Below are positions 6,549 through 55,294 of a stretch of DNA of 63,445 nucleotides, piece after piece; position 1 is the stretch's first letter, and each line of letters opens with the position of its first letter. The position numbers and the translations under genes are program-made. The notes below the pieces were generated by a model. The model was not told the origin of the DNA and ran no database searches. It saw only the letters and a list, made by a program, of their open reading frames with translations. Origin of the DNA: Chloroflexota bacterium (GTDB taxonomy: Bacteria; Chloroflexota; Anaerolineae; B4-G1; SLSP01); NCBI GenBank assembly GCA_034717835.1, contig JAYELZ010000273.1:1-63445 (forward strand), in the 5' to 3' direction.

Positions 6549-7574
6549 CTAAGGCGAACAGCCACAAGAACGTCTAATTATCAATTCTGTAGGCAACAGA
6601 GTAACACCGGCGAGCTCTTCACCGGCAATTAAGCGCACTAACTGCTGAGTAGCCGTCTTCCCCACCAATTCAACGGGTGCGCGCACGGTAGTCAAAGCTG
6701 GAGTGATGTAACGCATTAAGTTAATATCATCAAATCCAACTACCGCGACATCTTCGGGCACCCGCACTCCAGCCCGCTTATAAGCCGCCAACACGCCAAT
6801 CGCCGCTTCATCATCGCAAGTAAAGAGCGCCTCAAATTCCACTCCGTCCCGCAGCCACGTTTCAGCCGAAGTTTGCGCTATTTCGCGATTAAACTGGCCG
6901 GGGGCCACCAACTGGGGATCAAAAGGGATGTTATGCGCCGCCAACGCCTCACGATAACCCAGTTCGCGCCGCTGCGCATCCTCGTGCCCTTCCTGGCCGG
7001 TCAAGAACGCGATCCGACGATAATGATGCACTTCAATGAGATGCGCCATCAACCGTCGCGTGCCGTTTTTATTCTCGATAGTCACGCTCGGTATCTGCAA
7101 ACCCGGAGGAGAAGAACGATGAATCAATACCACGGGGAAACCAATCTGCTTAAAGCGAGCTAATTCACTATCGGCCAAACTATCCACAAAGACCAACAAC
7201 CCATCCGTGTTATGCTCCCCCAGTGGACTAGAAAGGAGTCTCTCTTTCTGCGTGGCGTAGATCAACAAACCATAACCGGCGGCATTGGCCTGGGACTCGA
7301 TGCCCCGCAACATGGGAGTAAAAAAATCCCCCCCAATTTCTGATAATAAGAGACCAATGGTATTACTCTTCTGGTTCGCCAATACTTGGGCCGCAGCCTG
7401 AGGACGGTAATTCAATTTGATAATCGCTGCGCGGACCCGTTCAGTAGTCTTCGGCGTCACCAGATTTGTCCTATTGAACACTCGACTAACCGTAGCATTG
7501 GACACTCCGGCCAACTTAGCGACATCATCAATCGTGGCTCTGGAACGTTTCTTCTCATCAGTTGATAAACTCAT
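6549..7574 (-). CDS. LacI-family transcriptional regulator
   Basis: N-terminal HTH ATIDDVAKLAGVSNATVSRVFN plus a periplasmic-binding-like effector domain. Confidence 0.9.
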   Translation of the reverse strand: MSLSTDEKKRSRATIDDVAKLAGVSNATVSRVFNRTNLVTPKTTERVRAAIIKLNYRPQAAAQVLANQKSNTIGLLLSEIGGDFFTPMLRGIESQANAAGYGLLIYATQKERLLSSPLGEHNTDGLLVFVDSLADSELARFKQIGFPVVLIHRSSPPGLQIPSVTIENKNGTRRLMAHLIEVHHYRRIAFLTGQEGHEDAQRRELGYREALAAHNIPFDPQLVAPGQFNREIAQTSAETWLRDGVEFEALFTCDDEAAIGVLAAYKRAGVRVPEDVAVVGFDDINLMRYITPALTTVRAPVELVGKTATQQLVRLIAGEELAGVTLLPTELIIRRSCGCSP

Positions 7575-7597
7575 GTGAGGTCCTTAGCCTAATTCAG

Positions 7598-7622
7598 GTA
7601 AGCGGTTTTTGTAACCGCTTAC
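7598..7622. promoter_or_regulatory. Candidate LacI operator (autoregulation)
   Basis: Perfect 10-bp inverted repeat GTAAGCGGTT-tttgt-AACCGCTTAC, 24 nt upstream of the lacI-family start. Confidence 0.35.
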
Positions 7623-7678
7623 AGTATATACATAAGCCAAAATTTTGTCAAGAGGGAATGTTAGCAAAAGAAGAAAAT

Positions 7679-7717
7679 AATCCCTGTGCTCTCCGTTCCG
7701 CAATGTTGAAATTCCTG
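7679..7717. repeat. Copy of the CCCTGTGCTCTCCGT module
   Basis: atccctgtgctctccgt is identical to 43257-43273, and the following about 20 nt are similar. Confidence 0.6.
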
Positions 7718-7758
7718 CTTTCAGATTGCCAGTTGTGCAGATGGTGAAGGCAACTATG

Positions 7759-7793
7759 CAAAAAGCCCCAGAGCTCTGCTCTGGGGCTTTTTG
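7759..7793 (-). terminator. Rho-independent terminator after groEL
   Basis: agccccagag-ctct-gctctggggct flanked by A and T runs (bidirectional shape). Confidence 0.8.
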
Positions 7794-7830
7794 ATAACTA
7801 CACGGTCGGTCAATCAACCGCGCAAGAATC

Positions 7831-9507
<1,677 letters not shown>

Positions 9508-24827: not shown

Positions 24828-25220
24828 TCACGCAAAATTGCCCGGCCACGGCTCCCCGCCCACATCTGGATAGAGCGTAATGCGTTGCAACTTCCCCGTG
24901 CGATCCAGCACCACAGCCACCAATCCCAGATGCCAGCTAGGATCGAGCACCGTACACTCCGCAGCCAGATAACGCCGGGCGACGGCTTCCATCCGCGCCC
25001 GCTTACGCGGCGTCACGGATTGTTCCGGCGAGCTGTATGCGGCTCCACGCCGGGTACGCACCTCGAAGAAGGTGAGCTCCCCTTGCCGGACCGCGACAAT
25101 ATCCACCTCACCGGCCACGCAGTACCAATTCCGCCGCACAATGGTAAACCCCTGACGCTCCAACACTCTAGCCGCCAGCGTCTCCCCGCGTCGTCCCAGC
25201 CCCACCTTGCCCTTTGCCAT
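24828..25220 (-). CDS. yraN: YraN-family (UPF0102) endonuclease-like protein
   Basis: GRRGETLAARVLERQGFTIVRRNW...GEVDIVA. Confidence 0.85.
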   Translation of the reverse strand: MAKGKVGLGRRGETLAARVLERQGFTIVRRNWYCVAGEVDIVAVRQGELTFFEVRTRRGAAYSSPEQSVTPRKRARMEAVARRYLAAECTVLDPSWHLGLVAVVLDRTGKLQRITLYPDVGGEPWPGNFA

Positions 25221-50466: not shown

Positions 50467-51087
50467 TCAACCAATAAAAACCCTAGACCCCAAATCATTA
50501 GGCCATCTAAGCTCTGGATTATCTAATTTCCGCGCTCGTTCAACGGCTACTTCAATATGAGGTAAGAAACGTCCCGGATTTAGATTTTTCTTATTATATT
50601 CCCCCAGTATTTCCAACAGTTCTGCCTCTAAACGGTTACGATTAGCGTTAATTCTGGCATTTACTTTGAATTCAGTTAGAGTCTCAGAGGTATAATCATC
50701 CAAAGATTTTAGATGTAAAAGCAACCACAATTCGAAACAAGGATTACTGACTGCCAAATTATAGTCTTTTTGTACACTTACTTGCGCGATTTCTGCTAGC
50801 TTAGCATCTCCCCAACGATCCACATCAATTACTAACCAAAACTCATCACCATTTTCCCAATCGTACTTACCCTGGAAGTCATCAAGGGTCTCCAAAACAT
50901 GCTTTGGAGAAGATTCTACGGGATTTTCCCTCTCTAATAGGTGAATTTTTACTTTAGAGTTTTGGTATTTAGCCGCTAATCCTCGAAAGTATTGAGGCTC
51001 AGTATTTGCTCCTTCAGAAGCAATAACGATTAAGCGCGCATCCCGTACACCACTTAGACGCTGGCGGGGCTTAAATTTCCGAGACAT
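50467..51087 (-). CDS. RloB-like (Toprim-related) protein
   Basis: RLIVIASEGANTEPQYF, WLVIDVDRW, AVSNPCFELWLLLHL. The ATG directly abuts the upstream stop. Confidence 0.8.
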   Translation of the reverse strand: MSRKFKPRQRLSGVRDARLIVIASEGANTEPQYFRGLAAKYQNSKVKIHLLERENPVESSPKHVLETLDDFQGKYDWENGDEFWLVIDVDRWGDAKLAEIAQVSVQKDYNLAVSNPCFELWLLLHLKSLDDYTSETLTEFKVNARINANRNRLEAELLEILGEYNKKNLNPGRFLPHIEVAVERARKLDNPELRWPNDLGSRVFIG

Positions 51088-52419
51088 CTACGTCTCCTCG
51101 CGCGTGCCAAATGTCATACTGCCAAAAACTGGAATAGCGCCATAGCGACCCAGCATATAGCCTTTTTCTATATCTTTATCGTATCGTGGGGCGTACTCTT
51201 CTAGTGAGTAGGTATGGGAAGCCCCCTGACGATCTTTTTCTACAAACCAGATCTCATCACGCCGCAACAACTCCAAGTCTAGCAGGTGGGATTCATGTGT
51301 AGTGGTAATGAGCTGACTTTCTGAAGCCTCATTACTTAAAAACAGTTTCACTAATTCATAACTAAGTTTAGAGTGTAAACTGCGATCTATCTCATCTACA
51401 ACAAACACCTTGTTCTCTTGGTCTGTTAACCCTGGTAACAGATCCAATAAACGACGCGTGCCATCAGATTCTTCCGCCATATTAAATAGAACATCTTCTT
51501 CACAATCCGACATCTGGTGGCGCAGCATAAGTTTGCTGGCTTGTAGCTCTTCATCAATAATTTGGACTATATACCGGCTGCCTTGAGAGTTACTTAAAAA
51601 CGCGCCACTTCTATTAGCATCCCGGCCTGATTTCAACAACGTAGCGGTTAATTTTTCTGGGAATTCTTTCAGGGGATCAACTTTGCTCAGCTCAAAACCA
51701 CAAATACCCGTCCCCAGTTGTTCCAGATATTTTACCAACTCACCCCCTAAACTCTGCTCAACCCAAATTATTGGTAATGCCAGATATTTAGAGTCTGGAA
51801 AAATAATAGTTAAGTTTTCCGCGAACCATTGATAAACATTTTGGAAGTTTTGCACATCGCGTTCCACGCTCTCCGTAAGAAATAATTGATTAGGGCGTGT
51901 TCCCATTGCCACAAAGTCAAGGAAATCACGTTCTTTTTGGTTCTCTGTCTGGATTTTCCCAAATTCTATCTCTGTTTCACCAGAAGAATTTGTCTCCCTC
52001 TCAAACAACATTGTTTCAGTGGTTTTCCTAATTTCATACAACCATTCTTCACGAATATGCTGGCGATCTAATTCAAAACCGTAGATGTAACAACGGTCAC
52101 CTGCTTTGATCTCAAACTCAAATTTAGAGGGTAGTTTTTTAGTTTCAGCCCTAAGCTTAAACCTGGTGCGCGGAATCATATCTTTCGCATGTGTACCCTC
52201 CACGATCAATTCTCTCGCAAAATCCATAGCCTTGATCAAATTTGATTTACCAGAGGCGTTAGCTCCGTAAAGCATAGCAATACGCAACATTGAGATGTCA
52301 TGCCTTCCAGTACTCTCAATGACATGAGTAGAATGCTTACGCATCTTACCTGGGATCATGGACAATTCAACTTCCTCATCAAAAGACAAGTAATTACTAA
52401 CATGGAATCTAATCAGCAT
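51088..52419 (-). CDS. AAA15/AAA21-type ABC-like ATPase (RloA/AbiLi/AriA-like)
   Basis: NYLSF...LYGANASGKSNLIKA Walker A, VFVVDEIDRSLHSKL Walker B, QLITTTHES. Confidence 0.85.
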   Translation of the reverse strand: MLIRFHVSNYLSFDEEVELSMIPGKMRKHSTHVIESTGRHDISMLRIAMLYGANASGKSNLIKAMDFARELIVEGTHAKDMIPRTRFKLRAETKKLPSKFEFEIKAGDRCYIYGFELDRQHIREEWLYEIRKTTETMLFERETNSSGETEIEFGKIQTENQKERDFLDFVAMGTRPNQLFLTESVERDVQNFQNVYQWFAENLTIIFPDSKYLALPIIWVEQSLGGELVKYLEQLGTGICGFELSKVDPLKEFPEKLTATLLKSGRDANRSGAFLSNSQGSRYIVQIIDEELQASKLMLRHQMSDCEEDVLFNMAEESDGTRRLLDLLPGLTDQENKVFVVDEIDRSLHSKLSYELVKLFLSNEASESQLITTTHESHLLDLELLRRDEIWFVEKDRQGASHTYSLEEYAPRYDKDIEKGYMLGRYGAIPVFGSMTFGTREET

Positions 52420-52902: not shown

Positions 52903-54222
52903 CTAGCGTTGTTTTTGCTTGCTCCCATTTTGTTTTTGAGCCAAGTTATTCGCCTTCAGCAAGGCTACAATTTGATGGCGGGCGGTCTCATCCAAAGCTT
53001 TGCCGCGTGTCAGATCTTCACCGATAAATTTCCCCCGGGTCAATTGCCATACAGGCACCGTGGGTTTACTGAGAAGTAATTTACTCCGCGAAGCCCATAC
53101 AACTCGTGGCTCTATCCATACCGTCACATCACATTGTTGAAGATAGTCGTGTAATCGTTGTGCATTCCTCTGAGCTTGACGACCAGGGTTGCGGCTTAGC
53201 TTGTGCCAGAGGGGGCCGTATTTCCGTTGCCAGCTGTCACCGATGTTGCGATGGGTGCCGGAGAAAGTTTTGATTTCCAACGCATATATGCCATTGGGAC
53301 CAATTAGGATTGCATCAATATCATCTTGCCTACCAGGTAAAATGATATTGCGGAAAAGTGTCCAACGTTGATTCAGATTATTACGTAATGCTTTGGCTAC
53401 TAGTTGCTCGCCTTTACGACCTTTCTTATAATTCTCGATTTCATCTATAAGCTGCTCTGCTCGTGGCAAGATAAGTAATGCCCCTACCAATAGCGCGCCA
53501 GATGCGACTAGCCAACCTAATGATACTTGTGCCAGGTGGAGAAGCTGCACAATTACAACAACCACGCCGATAAACAATGACAACAGCCATAAGTCGAGAA
53601 CCACTACCATTAAAATTGCTGCCCAATGTTGTCTACGTCGCAACTGTTGCGTCAAATACTTACTACCGTTGACGATTTGCAGTGTTTGCTTAGAATCGGA
53701 GGCGACAGGTGCCGGAGCGACACCTATCGAAGGTATAGCTGCGGTATGGATAGGGACAGCGGAAGGTGTGAGGGATACTTGCCGAATTTGATTTTTGGCT
53801 AAGCCCTTTCGCTCTAGGGGCGTCAGTTGCCGGCATACAATTTCTGCTCCCAGCACCGCTGCCGCACTCCGTAATTCCTGCGTATAGGCGTTAGCTACGG
53901 CATAAGCTAAATCGTGTAGGTTGATAATCTGCTTGTCTAAGAGATTCCCAATAGGTTGATTTAGGCCTTTGAAAGGCCAGACGACTCTTCGTGCTACAGT
54001 TGGAAGAAGCATTACCTGTTGCAAATTTTGGGCCTGGAGCTCTACCGCCGCGGCCCACTTGATTTTGGGATCAAAATATTTCTCGGCGGCCCAATTTAAA
54101 TCTTGCTTATTTACTTCACCAGAGGCTAACAATTCGCCCAGTGGACGGTGCAACTTCTTGATCGGCCAAATGACGTTGTTGGCTAGCTCAATGATATCTG
54201 GTCCTTTCCATTCTTCAATCAT
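52903..54222 (-). CDS. Membrane protein with two N-terminal about 50-aa repeats, two TM helices and a C-terminal NERD (nuclease-related) domain
   Basis: Repeats VIWPIKKLHRPLGELL..DLNWA / VVWPFKGLNQPIGNLL..DLAYA. TM at residues 200-228 and 234-253. NERD: GRKGEQLVAKAL...DIDAILIGPNGIYALEIKTFSG. Confidence 0.8.
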   Translation of the reverse strand: MIEEWKGPDIIELANNVIWPIKKLHRPLGELLASGEVNKQDLNWAAEKYFDPKIKWAAAVELQAQNLQQVMLLPTVARRVVWPFKGLNQPIGNLLDKQIINLHDLAYAVANAYTQELRSAAAVLGAEIVCRQLTPLERKGLAKNQIRQVSLTPSAVPIHTAAIPSIGVAPAPVASDSKQTLQIVNGSKYLTQQLRRRQHWAAILMVVVLDLWLLSLFIGVVVVIVQLLHLAQVSLGWLVASGALLVGALLILPRAEQLIDEIENYKKGRKGEQLVAKALRNNLNQRWTLFRNIILPGRQDDIDAILIGPNGIYALEIKTFSGTHRNIGDSWQRKYGPLWHKLSRNPGRQAQRNAQRLHDYLQQCDVTVWIEPRVVWASRSKLLLSKPTVPVWQLTRGKFIGEDLTRGKALDETARHQIVALLKANNLAQKQNGSKQKQR

Positions 54223-54271
54223 GACCGCTCGCCTAAGTTTTTGTTAACATAAAGAGTTGGGGTAATATGCA

Positions 54272-55294
54272 TCAAAACAATATTCCCTGTTCCACCTGCT
54301 CAAATGGCAAGTTCAAGTGTTCGTAGGCGTTCCGGGTGGCGGTGCGACCACGTGGCGTGCGGTTGAGAAACCCTAATTGCAAGAGATACGGTTCCACCAC
54401 ATCCATGATGGTATCCGGGGCCTCGCCGATGGAGGCCGCGATGGTATCCAAGCCCACCGGCCCGCCGCCAAACTTCTCTATGATGGCGTGCAGCACTCGG
54501 CGATCTAAATTATCTAGACCGGCCTCGTCAATTTCTAACAATGCTGTTGCCTCCTCCGCAATTTTTCCGGTGATGATGCCGTCCCCGCGCACCTGAGCGT
54601 AATCGCGGACGCGGCGCAGGAGGCGTAGCGCGACGCGCGGCGTCCCCCGGCCGCGACGGGCGATCTCAATCCGACCTTGCGGTTCGAGCGGTACCGCAAG
54701 CACTTTGGCGGCGCGCTCCACAATCTGCTCCAGGGCCGCTTGCTCGTAGAAATCCAGCCGGTAGGTGGCTCCGAAGCGCGTGCGCAGCGGCGCGGAGAGG
54801 AGCGCCAGCCGGGTAGTCGCTCCCACCACCGTAAAGCGCGGCAAACTCAGACGGACGGTTCGCGCCCCCGGCCCCTGACCGATTACCAGATCCAGGGCGA
54901 AATCTTCCATGGCCGGGTAGAGGATCTCTTCCACCACTTTGCCCAGACGGTGAATCTCGTCGATGAAGAGCACTTCCTTCTCACGTAGGTTGCTAAGGAT
55001 AGCTGCCAAGTCCCCGGCGCGTTCAATCGCCGGCCCAGAGGTGACGTGAATAGCAGTCCCCATCTCATTGGCGCAGATGCGGGCCAGCGTGGTTTTTCCT
55101 AACCCTGGCGGGCCATAGAATAATGTATGCTCCAGGGCTTCGCCGCGCCCTTGCGCGGCGTCGAGCAGGATACGCAAATTCTCTCGCACGCGATCTTGGC
55201 CGATGAGTGCTGCTAGTCGCTGGGGACGTAGCGCGCGGTCCAAAATGGGTTCTTCGAGGGTGGCTTCGGGTGCTATGGTGCGTGGTCTAGTCAT
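54272..55294 (-). CDS. ruvB: Holliday junction branch migration helicase RuvB
   Basis: [36 protein letters not shown]. Confidence 0.96.

Follow-up and report, generated by a model that had tools for sequence, protein, structure and literature searches.

The gene at positions 52903-54222 on the reverse strand of a contig from a Chloroflexota bacterium (GenBank assembly GCA_034717835.1, contig JAYELZ010000273.1; the 63,445 nucleotides analysed here are referred to as the window) raises the question of what a nuclease-related (NERD) domain does in a protein that also carries a membrane hairpin and a duplicated N-terminal module. The open reading frame (ORF) is intact and its product comprises 439 amino acids; since the open frame has 446 codons, the ATG is placed seven codons past the in-frame upstream stop. 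The answer to which we incline, tentatively, is that the gene encodes a stand-alone deoxyribonuclease (DNase) tethered to the inner membrane and confined to it, which would act against phage or other foreign DNA and would use its tandem module, carried on a flexible tether, as an adaptor for a protein. A defensive role is probable, so that the protein would be a single-gene immune nuclease, the mechanism of which we infer below.

Domain architecture and membrane topology

The catalytic part lies in the C-terminal half. The NERD domain (PF08378) is the only Pfam domain found in the protein at E-values up to 1; its score of 77.4 bits (E 1.5e-21) exceeds the cut-off of 22.1, and it covers positions 1-110 of the 111 in the model, and was recovered again in a six-frame scan of the genome. 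Conservation was assessed in an alignment of 18 family members, which also underlies the AlphaFold2 model. In all 18 members E272, D301/D303, E316-x-K318 and Q349 are invariant, as is G271. The residues characteristic of the PD-(D/E)xK superfamily are present and the catalytic set is intact in the sequence, and nuclease activity is predicted. The domain and the conserved extension behind it (residues 262-439) have a net charge of +18, which bears out the basic tail noted in a preliminary description of the locus. Among the aligned members, this charge ranges from +8 to +18 in 16 of the 18 and amounts to +3 and -2 in the most distant ones, P0027 and P0028.

The same description had named a proline- and alanine-rich linker and two hydrophobic helices, and both were found (Table 1). 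The two transmembrane helices, TM1 and TM2, reach Kyte-Doolittle values of up to 2.9. The full-length model has a mean predicted local distance difference test (pLDDT) score of 86, with disorder confined to residues 143-177 of the linker, where pLDDT falls below 50. The linker is 27-57 residues long in 17 of the 18 aligned members and only 6 residues long in P0028. It is followed by a juxtamembrane segment in which G186, S187 and L190 are nearly invariant; in the model, the conserved motif of this segment forms a strand (182-185) and a helix starts at residue 189, both ahead of TM1. On the other side of the hairpin, TM2 continues as an unbroken helix (235-282) into the first helix of the NERD domain, which bears the invariant G271-E272.

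The orientation of the hairpin follows from its charges. Four lysine or arginine residues precede TM1 in the window protein, and in 17 of the 18 members 3-8 such residues stand ahead of TM1 and 2-7 behind TM2, with 0-2 in the intervening loop, which is about 7 residues long; P0024 is the exception, with only one before TM1. No signal peptide was found ahead of the N-terminal part of 190 residues. Given the positively charged ends of the hairpin, the short outer loop and the missing signal peptide, both the N-terminal module and the NERD domain are predicted by the positive-inside rule to lie on the cytoplasmic side.

The N-terminal module consists of two repeats, and the gap-free duplication noted in the preliminary description proved to be real: residues 12-60 and 76-124 align without gaps with 18 of 49 positions identical (37%; BLASTP E 3e-11). 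In 17 of the 18 members of the alignment, the two-repeat block of 131 residues is free of gaps. Compared with the window protein, the repeats average 58-63% identity and the NERD domain 58%, as against 36% for the hairpin and 18% for the linker. The module is about neutral (charges of -6 to +7 in the aligned members), whereas the nuclease half is basic, which argues that the module binds a protein rather than DNA.

The N-terminal module and its distribution

Modelled alone, the module is predicted with high confidence (pLDDT 96, predicted template modelling score 0.90), each repeat consisting of a short beta-turn followed by three helices. Neither Pfam nor PDB sequence-profile searches gave a meaningful match to it. 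When the PDB was searched with Foldseek, neither the full model nor the N-terminal domain returned anything at E <0.1, the best match of the module having an E-value of 1.4 and TM-scores being at most 0.33, and a search of the N-terminal domain against BFVD likewise returned nothing at E <0.1. The PHROGs scan of the module gave nothing below E 0.002. One match to a single repeat in BFVD, the viral protein A0A3Q9JGY7 of 402 residues (55 columns, root-mean-square deviation 1.8 Å, 27% identity, probability 0.97, E 0.73), could be a phage copy of the module.

Two repeat families were considered and rejected. The match to the NHL repeat, known from the PknD sensor and the Pizza designs, depends on the short string PF.GLNRP.G with 4-7 bits per repeat, and the module is predicted to be helical. 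As for HEAT and PBS-lyase HEAT-like repeats, a weak HEAT_2 match appeared in one of 14 members (E 0.004), and the HEAT/ARM proteins in the Foldseek list have TM-scores of at most 0.25 and E-values above 2.

A profile of the module was searched against 1.84 billion representative proteins and retrieved 181 clusters at E <=0.001. When the listed hits were checked with in-house hidden Markov models (HMMs), the module was present in 174, of which 127 are at least 300 residues long. The same hairpin and NERD domain follow in 122 of these 127, and the remaining five stop at or just past the hairpin and look truncated; the module is therefore exclusive to this architecture. Members have either one repeat (about 340 residues) or two (about 430 residues), and some carry N-terminal extensions, namely TPR repeats in many cases and an Mrr_cat-type domain in one. 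The latter protein, P0024 (570 residues, metagenomic), has the Mrr_cat-type domain (PF04471) in place of the TPR extension and combines two nuclease-type domains in one membrane protein.

The named records of the family come from metagenome-assembled genomes (MAGs) of Thermoflexia, Anaerolineae, Chloroflexia and unclassified Chloroflexota; one further record is labelled only 'bacterium' and another belongs to an 'Oceanobacillus' MAG that is probably mis-binned. On these records, the family is confined to Chloroflexota as far as seen so far. No relatives were found in IMG/VR or INPHARED. A phage or plasmid origin was accordingly discarded as a candidate, since these two collections hold no viral relative and plasmids give generic NERD-domain matches only. 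The genome from which the window derives contains a second NERD ORF on contig C205 (522-827; 334-codon frame, E 4e-11), and the window itself has a weak, sub-threshold NERD-like stretch at 25017-25196 (E 6.5e-4).

Genomic neighbourhoods of the family

The neighbourhoods of 18 loci, including the window, were compared (Table 1). Defence, toxin-antitoxin or mobile-element genes occur within a few kb in 9-10 of the 18. Two family members are embedded in bacteriophage exclusion (BREX) operons, where they lie between pglX and brxC and overlap brxC. At L043, the final base of the NERD stop codon is also where brxC begins, and at L042 the NERD gene shares 8 nt with the DUF4276 gene upstream of it and 31 nt with brxC; the gene order of both BREX loci (brxA, brxB, PglX-type methylase, NERD gene, brxC, RiboL-PSP HEPN protein) is unusual. 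Genes embedded in defence operons are often defence genes themselves, and a defence function has been validated for NERD proteins (bioRxiv 10.1101/2024.01.29.577857). The probable defence role draws support from these 9-10 neighbourhoods, including the embedding in BREX and in a type I restriction-modification (R-M) operon.

The preliminary description had held that consistent occurrence in housekeeping contexts would speak against such a role, and the contexts are mixed rather than consistent in this sense. It had also suggested a survey for co-occurrence with AAA15/RloB genes: this pair was seen only in the window, with a looser AAA_21+DUF4276 case at L042, so that it is not conserved. An ATPase is a neighbour in only two of the 18 loci, each time with its own Toprim-type partner.

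Table 1. Features of the NERD gene, its surroundings in the window, and defence-type neighbours at homologous loci. Residue numbers refer to the window protein.
Feature	Position	Strand	Basis or remark
Whole ORF, 439 residues: tandem-repeat module, linker, transmembrane hairpin, NERD nuclease	52903..54222	-	
Repeat 1, residues 12-62, WP[FI]K.L.RPLGELL..G.V...DL.WA...A.DP.[VI]KWAAAV	54037..54189	-	pLDDT >90
Repeat 2, residues 76-127, same module, C-terminal end AY.PEVR.AAAVLGAEIV	53842..53997	-	
Linker, residues 136-178, Pro/Ala/Ser/Thr-rich, variable, disordered	53689..53817	-	pLDDT and alignment
Juxtamembrane segment, residues 179-199, conserved, L.VI.GS.YL motif and positive patch RRRQH	53626..53688	-	
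Transmembrane helix 1, residues about 200-226	53545..53625	-	hydropathy, model
Transmembrane helix 2, residues about 234-253	53464..53523	-	hydropathy, model
NERD (PD-(D/E)xK) nuclease domain, residues 267-376	53095..53424	-	Pfam PF08378
C-terminal extension, residues 377-439, conserved	52906..53094	-	
ruvB, insertion target	54272..55294	-	
Direct repeat, proximal copy: functional last 22 ruvB codons and stop	54271..54340	-	
Direct repeat, distal copy: displaced ruvB-tail remnant at the far cassette edge, still encoding 22 RuvB-tail residues	52749..52818	-	
AbiL neighbour pair: AbiLi AAA_21 ATPase (51088-52419), AbiLii RloB (50467-51087)	50467..52419	-	
Neighbours in the window: AbiL	window		
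Neighbours: PIN toxin-antitoxin	L001		
Neighbours: type I R-M hsdS/hsdR directly upstream, integrase downstream	L002		4-nt overlap with preceding gene
Neighbours: PDDEXK_1 and UvrD helicase (AddAB-like) upstream, CHAT-TPR downstream	L003		
Neighbours: FitA/PIN	L006		
Neighbours: HicB	L007		
Neighbours: KAP NTPase, Mrr	L057		
Neighbours: RNase_T-WYL	L039		marginal case
BREX: brxA, brxB, PglX-type methylase, NERD gene, brxC, then RiboL-PSP HEPN protein	L043, 153-11829		
BREX: NERD gene upstream of brxC; AbiEii and AAA_21+DUF4276 also embedded	L042, 20-11012		

Comparison with known systems and proposed function

The nearest functional parallel is SNIPE (PD-lambda-1), a membrane-bound nuclease that cuts phage DNA while it is being injected (Saxton et al., Nature 2026, PMC13190303). 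Its membrane tether prevents cleavage of host DNA, and a second cytoplasmic domain directs the nuclease to the entering phage DNA (PMC13190303). Both are single genes with a cytoplasmic nuclease on the inner membrane and a separate non-catalytic cytoplasmic domain, features which for the NERD protein are predictions. The designs nevertheless differ, since SNIPE has one N-terminal transmembrane helix, DUF4041 and a GIY-YIG nuclease, whereas the NERD protein has an N-terminal tandem module, a centrally placed hairpin and a PD-(D/E)xK nuclease. Pfam and PADLOC found neither DUF4041 nor GIY-YIG and no sequence relationship to SNIPE.

Other defence systems share the NERD domain alone. The PADLOC matches to PglW, MkoA and PDC-M16A are restricted to this domain, the best being PglW (E 6e-9). 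PglW of BREX type 2 and MAD6 of MADS (NCBIfam E 1e-11) are the top NERD matches in the defence libraries; they are, however, soluble proteins with kinase domains and model lengths of about 1400 and 612 positions in NCBIfam and PADLOC, and the scores against the two models were 28.8 bits against a cut-off of 990 and 43.9 against 460, with only the NERD part aligned. PglW of BREX type 2, which contains a NERD domain, has 1400-1600 residues (PMC12839542). HEC-02, an ABC ATPase with a NERD protein, is a validated embedded defence system found through 'guilt by embedding' (bioRxiv 10.1101/2024.01.29.577857) and likewise uses a NERD PD-(D/E)xK effector in a defence setting. HEC-02B, however, requires its ATPase partner, whereas the protein described here has no conserved partner and the ATPase adjacent to it pairs with RloB as AbiL; no HEC-02 model was matched in PADLOC. 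The described NERD proteins with membrane helices (PF08378) share the domain and the helices with this family and are not known to carry the N-terminal tandem module.

Taken together with the architecture, we propose that the membrane tether would hold the DNase away from the nucleoid, as in SNIPE. The tandem module would act as a protein-binding adaptor and not as a DNA binder, docking on a conserved host or phage DNA-processing protein, and through this docking the nuclease would either be presented with foreign DNA that is located at the membrane or close to it, or be set free. Members with one repeat would dimerise into the same two-module unit, which would pair the nuclease domains for double-strand cutting, and the gene would move as a single-gene cassette into variable defence slots. 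Of the membrane-anchored sensor-nuclease first suggested for this locus, the anchored-nuclease architecture stands, with catalytic residues intact and activity predicted; a sensor role would be conjecture.

Several observations weigh against this proposal. Unlike the fast-evolving specificity regions of many sensors, among them the hypervariable N-terminus of SNIPE, the N-terminal module is as conserved as the nuclease. Beyond the NERD domain, no PADLOC system model was matched, and no partner protein is known. The share of loci with defence neighbours is a raw count over a small sample of 18, with no formal background rate, and eight loci (L004, L005, L041, L044, L046, L047, L056, L058) have a housekeeping or metabolic context. 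One of these, L004 (7383-11130), holds a TPR-bearing member inside an F420 biosynthesis cluster (nitroreductase, NERD gene, an ORF of 149 residues, CofD), where the NERD gene starts 3 nt past the upstream stop and overlaps the downstream ORF by 4 nt, an unexpected setting for a gene of defence. The association with defence is thus not uniform.

A different form of immunity has to be considered here, in which the nuclease is held inactive at the membrane until the N-terminal module senses infection, whereupon host and phage DNA would be degraded, or the hairpin would damage the membrane, and the cell would die. A suicidal backup of this kind has been proposed for the PglW NERD domain in BREX type 2 (PMC12839542). 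It agrees with the two members embedded in BREX operons, with neighbours of the abortive-infection or toxin type (AbiL, PIN, HicB, AbiEii), and with the conservation of the module, which would suit a sensor of some conserved cue better than one of variable phage proteins. However, no antitoxin or regulator is conserved beside the gene among the examined loci. The rigid, continuous helix from TM2 into the nuclease in the model also speaks against it, as the active site would then stay no more than a few nanometres from the membrane, poorly placed for destruction of the nucleoid unless the protein were released. We regard abortive infection as an unlikely explanation.

Acquisition of the gene at a ruvB cassette slot

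The gene starts 49 nt past the ruvB stop codon on the same strand. As the preliminary description had recognised, it sits alone in a cassette between direct repeats derived from ruvB, which are 70 nt long, 91% identical and 1522 nt apart. The cassette of 1.5 kb has a guanine-cytosine (GC) content of about 48%, compared with 58-60% in the surrounding genome region, and the gene is present in 3 of the genus's 8 genomes and, across the taxonomic family, in 13 of 31 genera. The GC content, the duplication of the ruvB tail and the patchy presence in genus and family indicate a foreign origin, and by these signs the gene is horizontally acquired.

In a sister genome (G006, locus L001), synteny is kept and the flanking RuvB, LytR and glycosyltransferase are 92%, 90% and 91% identical to those of the window, as against 70% for the NERD protein. 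There (6820-9440), ruvB is followed first by a PIN toxin-antitoxin pair with a ruvB-tail remnant behind it, and then by the NERD gene with a second such remnant. In the closest relative (G004, RuvB 95% identical), the slot contains a gene for a product of 101 residues and Rhs C-terminal fragments, and in more distant members of the genus a conserved membrane protein follows ruvB. The 3' end of ruvB is, on this comparison, a cassette slot in the sub-lineage and hypervariable in the closest relatives. The two Rhs-type C-terminal fragments of the closest relative (L030, 4466-7331; RYYDP.LGRFISAD…DPTGH), with small membrane ORFs downstream, look like orphan toxin/immunity cassettes. Behind each cassette (the NERD gene in the window, and both the PIN pair and the NERD gene in the sister genome), the final 65-115 nt of ruvB recur as a displaced copy. 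The ruvB tails are more similar within a genome than between genomes, which suggests either that insertion duplicated host sequence or that gene conversion took place. No tyrosine recombinase or integrase was found on the 63-kb contig, and no third copy of the ruvB tail beyond AbiL.

The neighbouring AAA_21/RloB pair, whose genes abut stop to start, has the ruvB-tail remnant on one side and a nucleoside ABC transporter operon on the other and is named AbiL by PADLOC (AbiLi 2.9e-88, AbiLii 5e-20). Because of its own GC content of about 40% and its position beyond the remnant, it is taken as a separate insertion. A three-gene system of AbiL and NERD was rejected for the same reasons, and the pair is moreover absent from the sister locus and from 16 other loci.

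Relationship of the repeats to the ExoX-like_C module

The repeats had been likened to short motifs of the type 'FGKYKG..L.E....YL.W', which leads to the ExoX-like_C/QSregVF_b module (formerly DUF3820). This module also comprises about 50 residues, is often found in tandem, and shares with the NERD-family repeats the pattern ..[FP][GF]K....[KR].LGE.L......[YD]L.[WY][LA]A..A.D..[VL][KR].AA..L.; its hallmark FGK[YH].GK, however, is replaced by WPFK.LNRP in the NERD family, which also has a 3-residue insertion. In exonuclease X, a truncation to residues 1-167, from which the module is removed, retains exonuclease activity (PMC3753628). The HMMs of ExoX-like_C (PF20600) and QSregVF_b (PF12843) gave no match in 14 members at E up to 10 (hmmscan), and six-frame scans with both in three gene-carrying genomes of the genus did not match the gene at E up to 0.01. 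The scans of related genomes did reveal PF20600 modules in 2-3 tandem copies at the C-terminus of Rad52/22-family proteins. These annealing proteins, encoded in G003 (L048/L053), G005 (L049/L054/L055) and G049 (L050), carry their 2-3 modules with Gly/Asn-rich spacers. To our knowledge, tandem ExoX-like_C tails on Rad52/22-family single-strand annealing proteins have not been described.

Profile comparison with hhalign of 28 single repeats of the NERD family against eight modules of the Rad52 type gave a probability of 92.4% (E 5.3e-7, score 32.9, 38 columns). Controls scored clearly lower, with 9.1 +/- 2.4 and a maximum of 19 in 200 column shuffles and 12.9 for the reversed alignment, and after removal of the two most similar sequences the comparison still reached a probability of 81.6% and a score of 27.4. 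In contrast, 31 PF20600 modules from other Chloroflexota families scored 9.2 and a subgroup of six PF20600 members 12.8, both at the level of the shuffles. Because the larger independent set of modules remains at shuffle level, a relationship is claimed for one branch only, where it is probable as a tentative assignment and not an established one. The suggested likeness has some support from the Rad52-type modules and none from the Pfam models and other branches.

This likeness bears on the question of whether the protein serves DNA metabolism instead of defence, as a membrane nuclease for repair, recombination or DNA uptake that ExoX-like modules would recruit to a partner of exonuclease X or Rad52-type proteins. 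Such a factor would be in keeping with the resemblance to the modules on the Rad52/22-family proteins of related genomes, with the location 49 nt behind ruvB in the same orientation, found in this genome and one sister genome, and with the housekeeping contexts of about half of the loci. Against it speak the patchy presence within the genus, the clear insertion after ruvB with tail duplication and GC shift, the identity of 70% between two genomes whose flanking proteins are 90-92% identical, and the embedding in BREX and R-M operons. RuvC is kept in all 8 genomes of the genus, with or without the NERD gene, and the protein is therefore not a substitute resolvase, which excludes it as a partner or substitute in RuvAB resolution. 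A role in DNA metabolism is doubtful on balance.

The same likeness can also be combined with immunity. The tandem modules would then be a 'bait' copied from proteins with which phages and hosts process DNA ends, namely from the tails of Rad52-type proteins and exonuclease X, and foreign DNA would be told from self by the recombination or replication proteins loaded on it; the bait may bind the docking partner of these tails or pair directly with the tails of phage recombinases. We consider this bait reading rather improbable. Finally, that the NERD enzyme cuts the 3' end of ruvB and so helps its own cassette to be copied there, much as a homing endonuclease does, would account for a cassette without recombinase and for the duplicated target sequence on both of its sides, but it is highly improbable, as the PIN cassette of the sister genome has the same ruvB-tail duplication without a NERD gene, family members occur at many unrelated sites, and a membrane anchor and a conserved protein-binding module are foreign to homing enzymes.

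Implications for defence in Chloroflexota

Part of this picture is known already. NERD nucleases act in defence, and NERD proteins with membrane helices exist; Grynberg and Godzik reportedly described NERD proteins with predicted transmembrane helices in 2004. What is new is the exclusive fusion to a confidently folded, unannotated tandem module, the predicted topology, in which a central hairpin leaves module and nuclease on one and the same side, the occurrence in Chloroflexota only, as far as seen to date, and the embedding in BREX and R-M operons.

If the membrane-confined DNase that we favour is correct, the family would be an independent design of a membrane-tethered nuclease, with another nuclease superfamily and another topology than SNIPE, at a time when the existence of membrane-bound nucleases that use location to distinguish self from non-self has just been demonstrated (SNIPE, 2026). 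Its putative targeting module is conserved and confidently folded, without a solved or annotated relative, and may offer a handle on the function of the widespread ExoX-like_C/DUF3820 module. Should the bait reading be true, the protein would unite a guard of the phage recombination machinery with a spatially confined nuclease, and the ExoX-like_C/DUF3820 module would receive its first function, as a protein-docking unit. For the phylum Chloroflexota, in which hardly any defence system has been studied by experiment, the gene is a concrete candidate for single-gene immunity.

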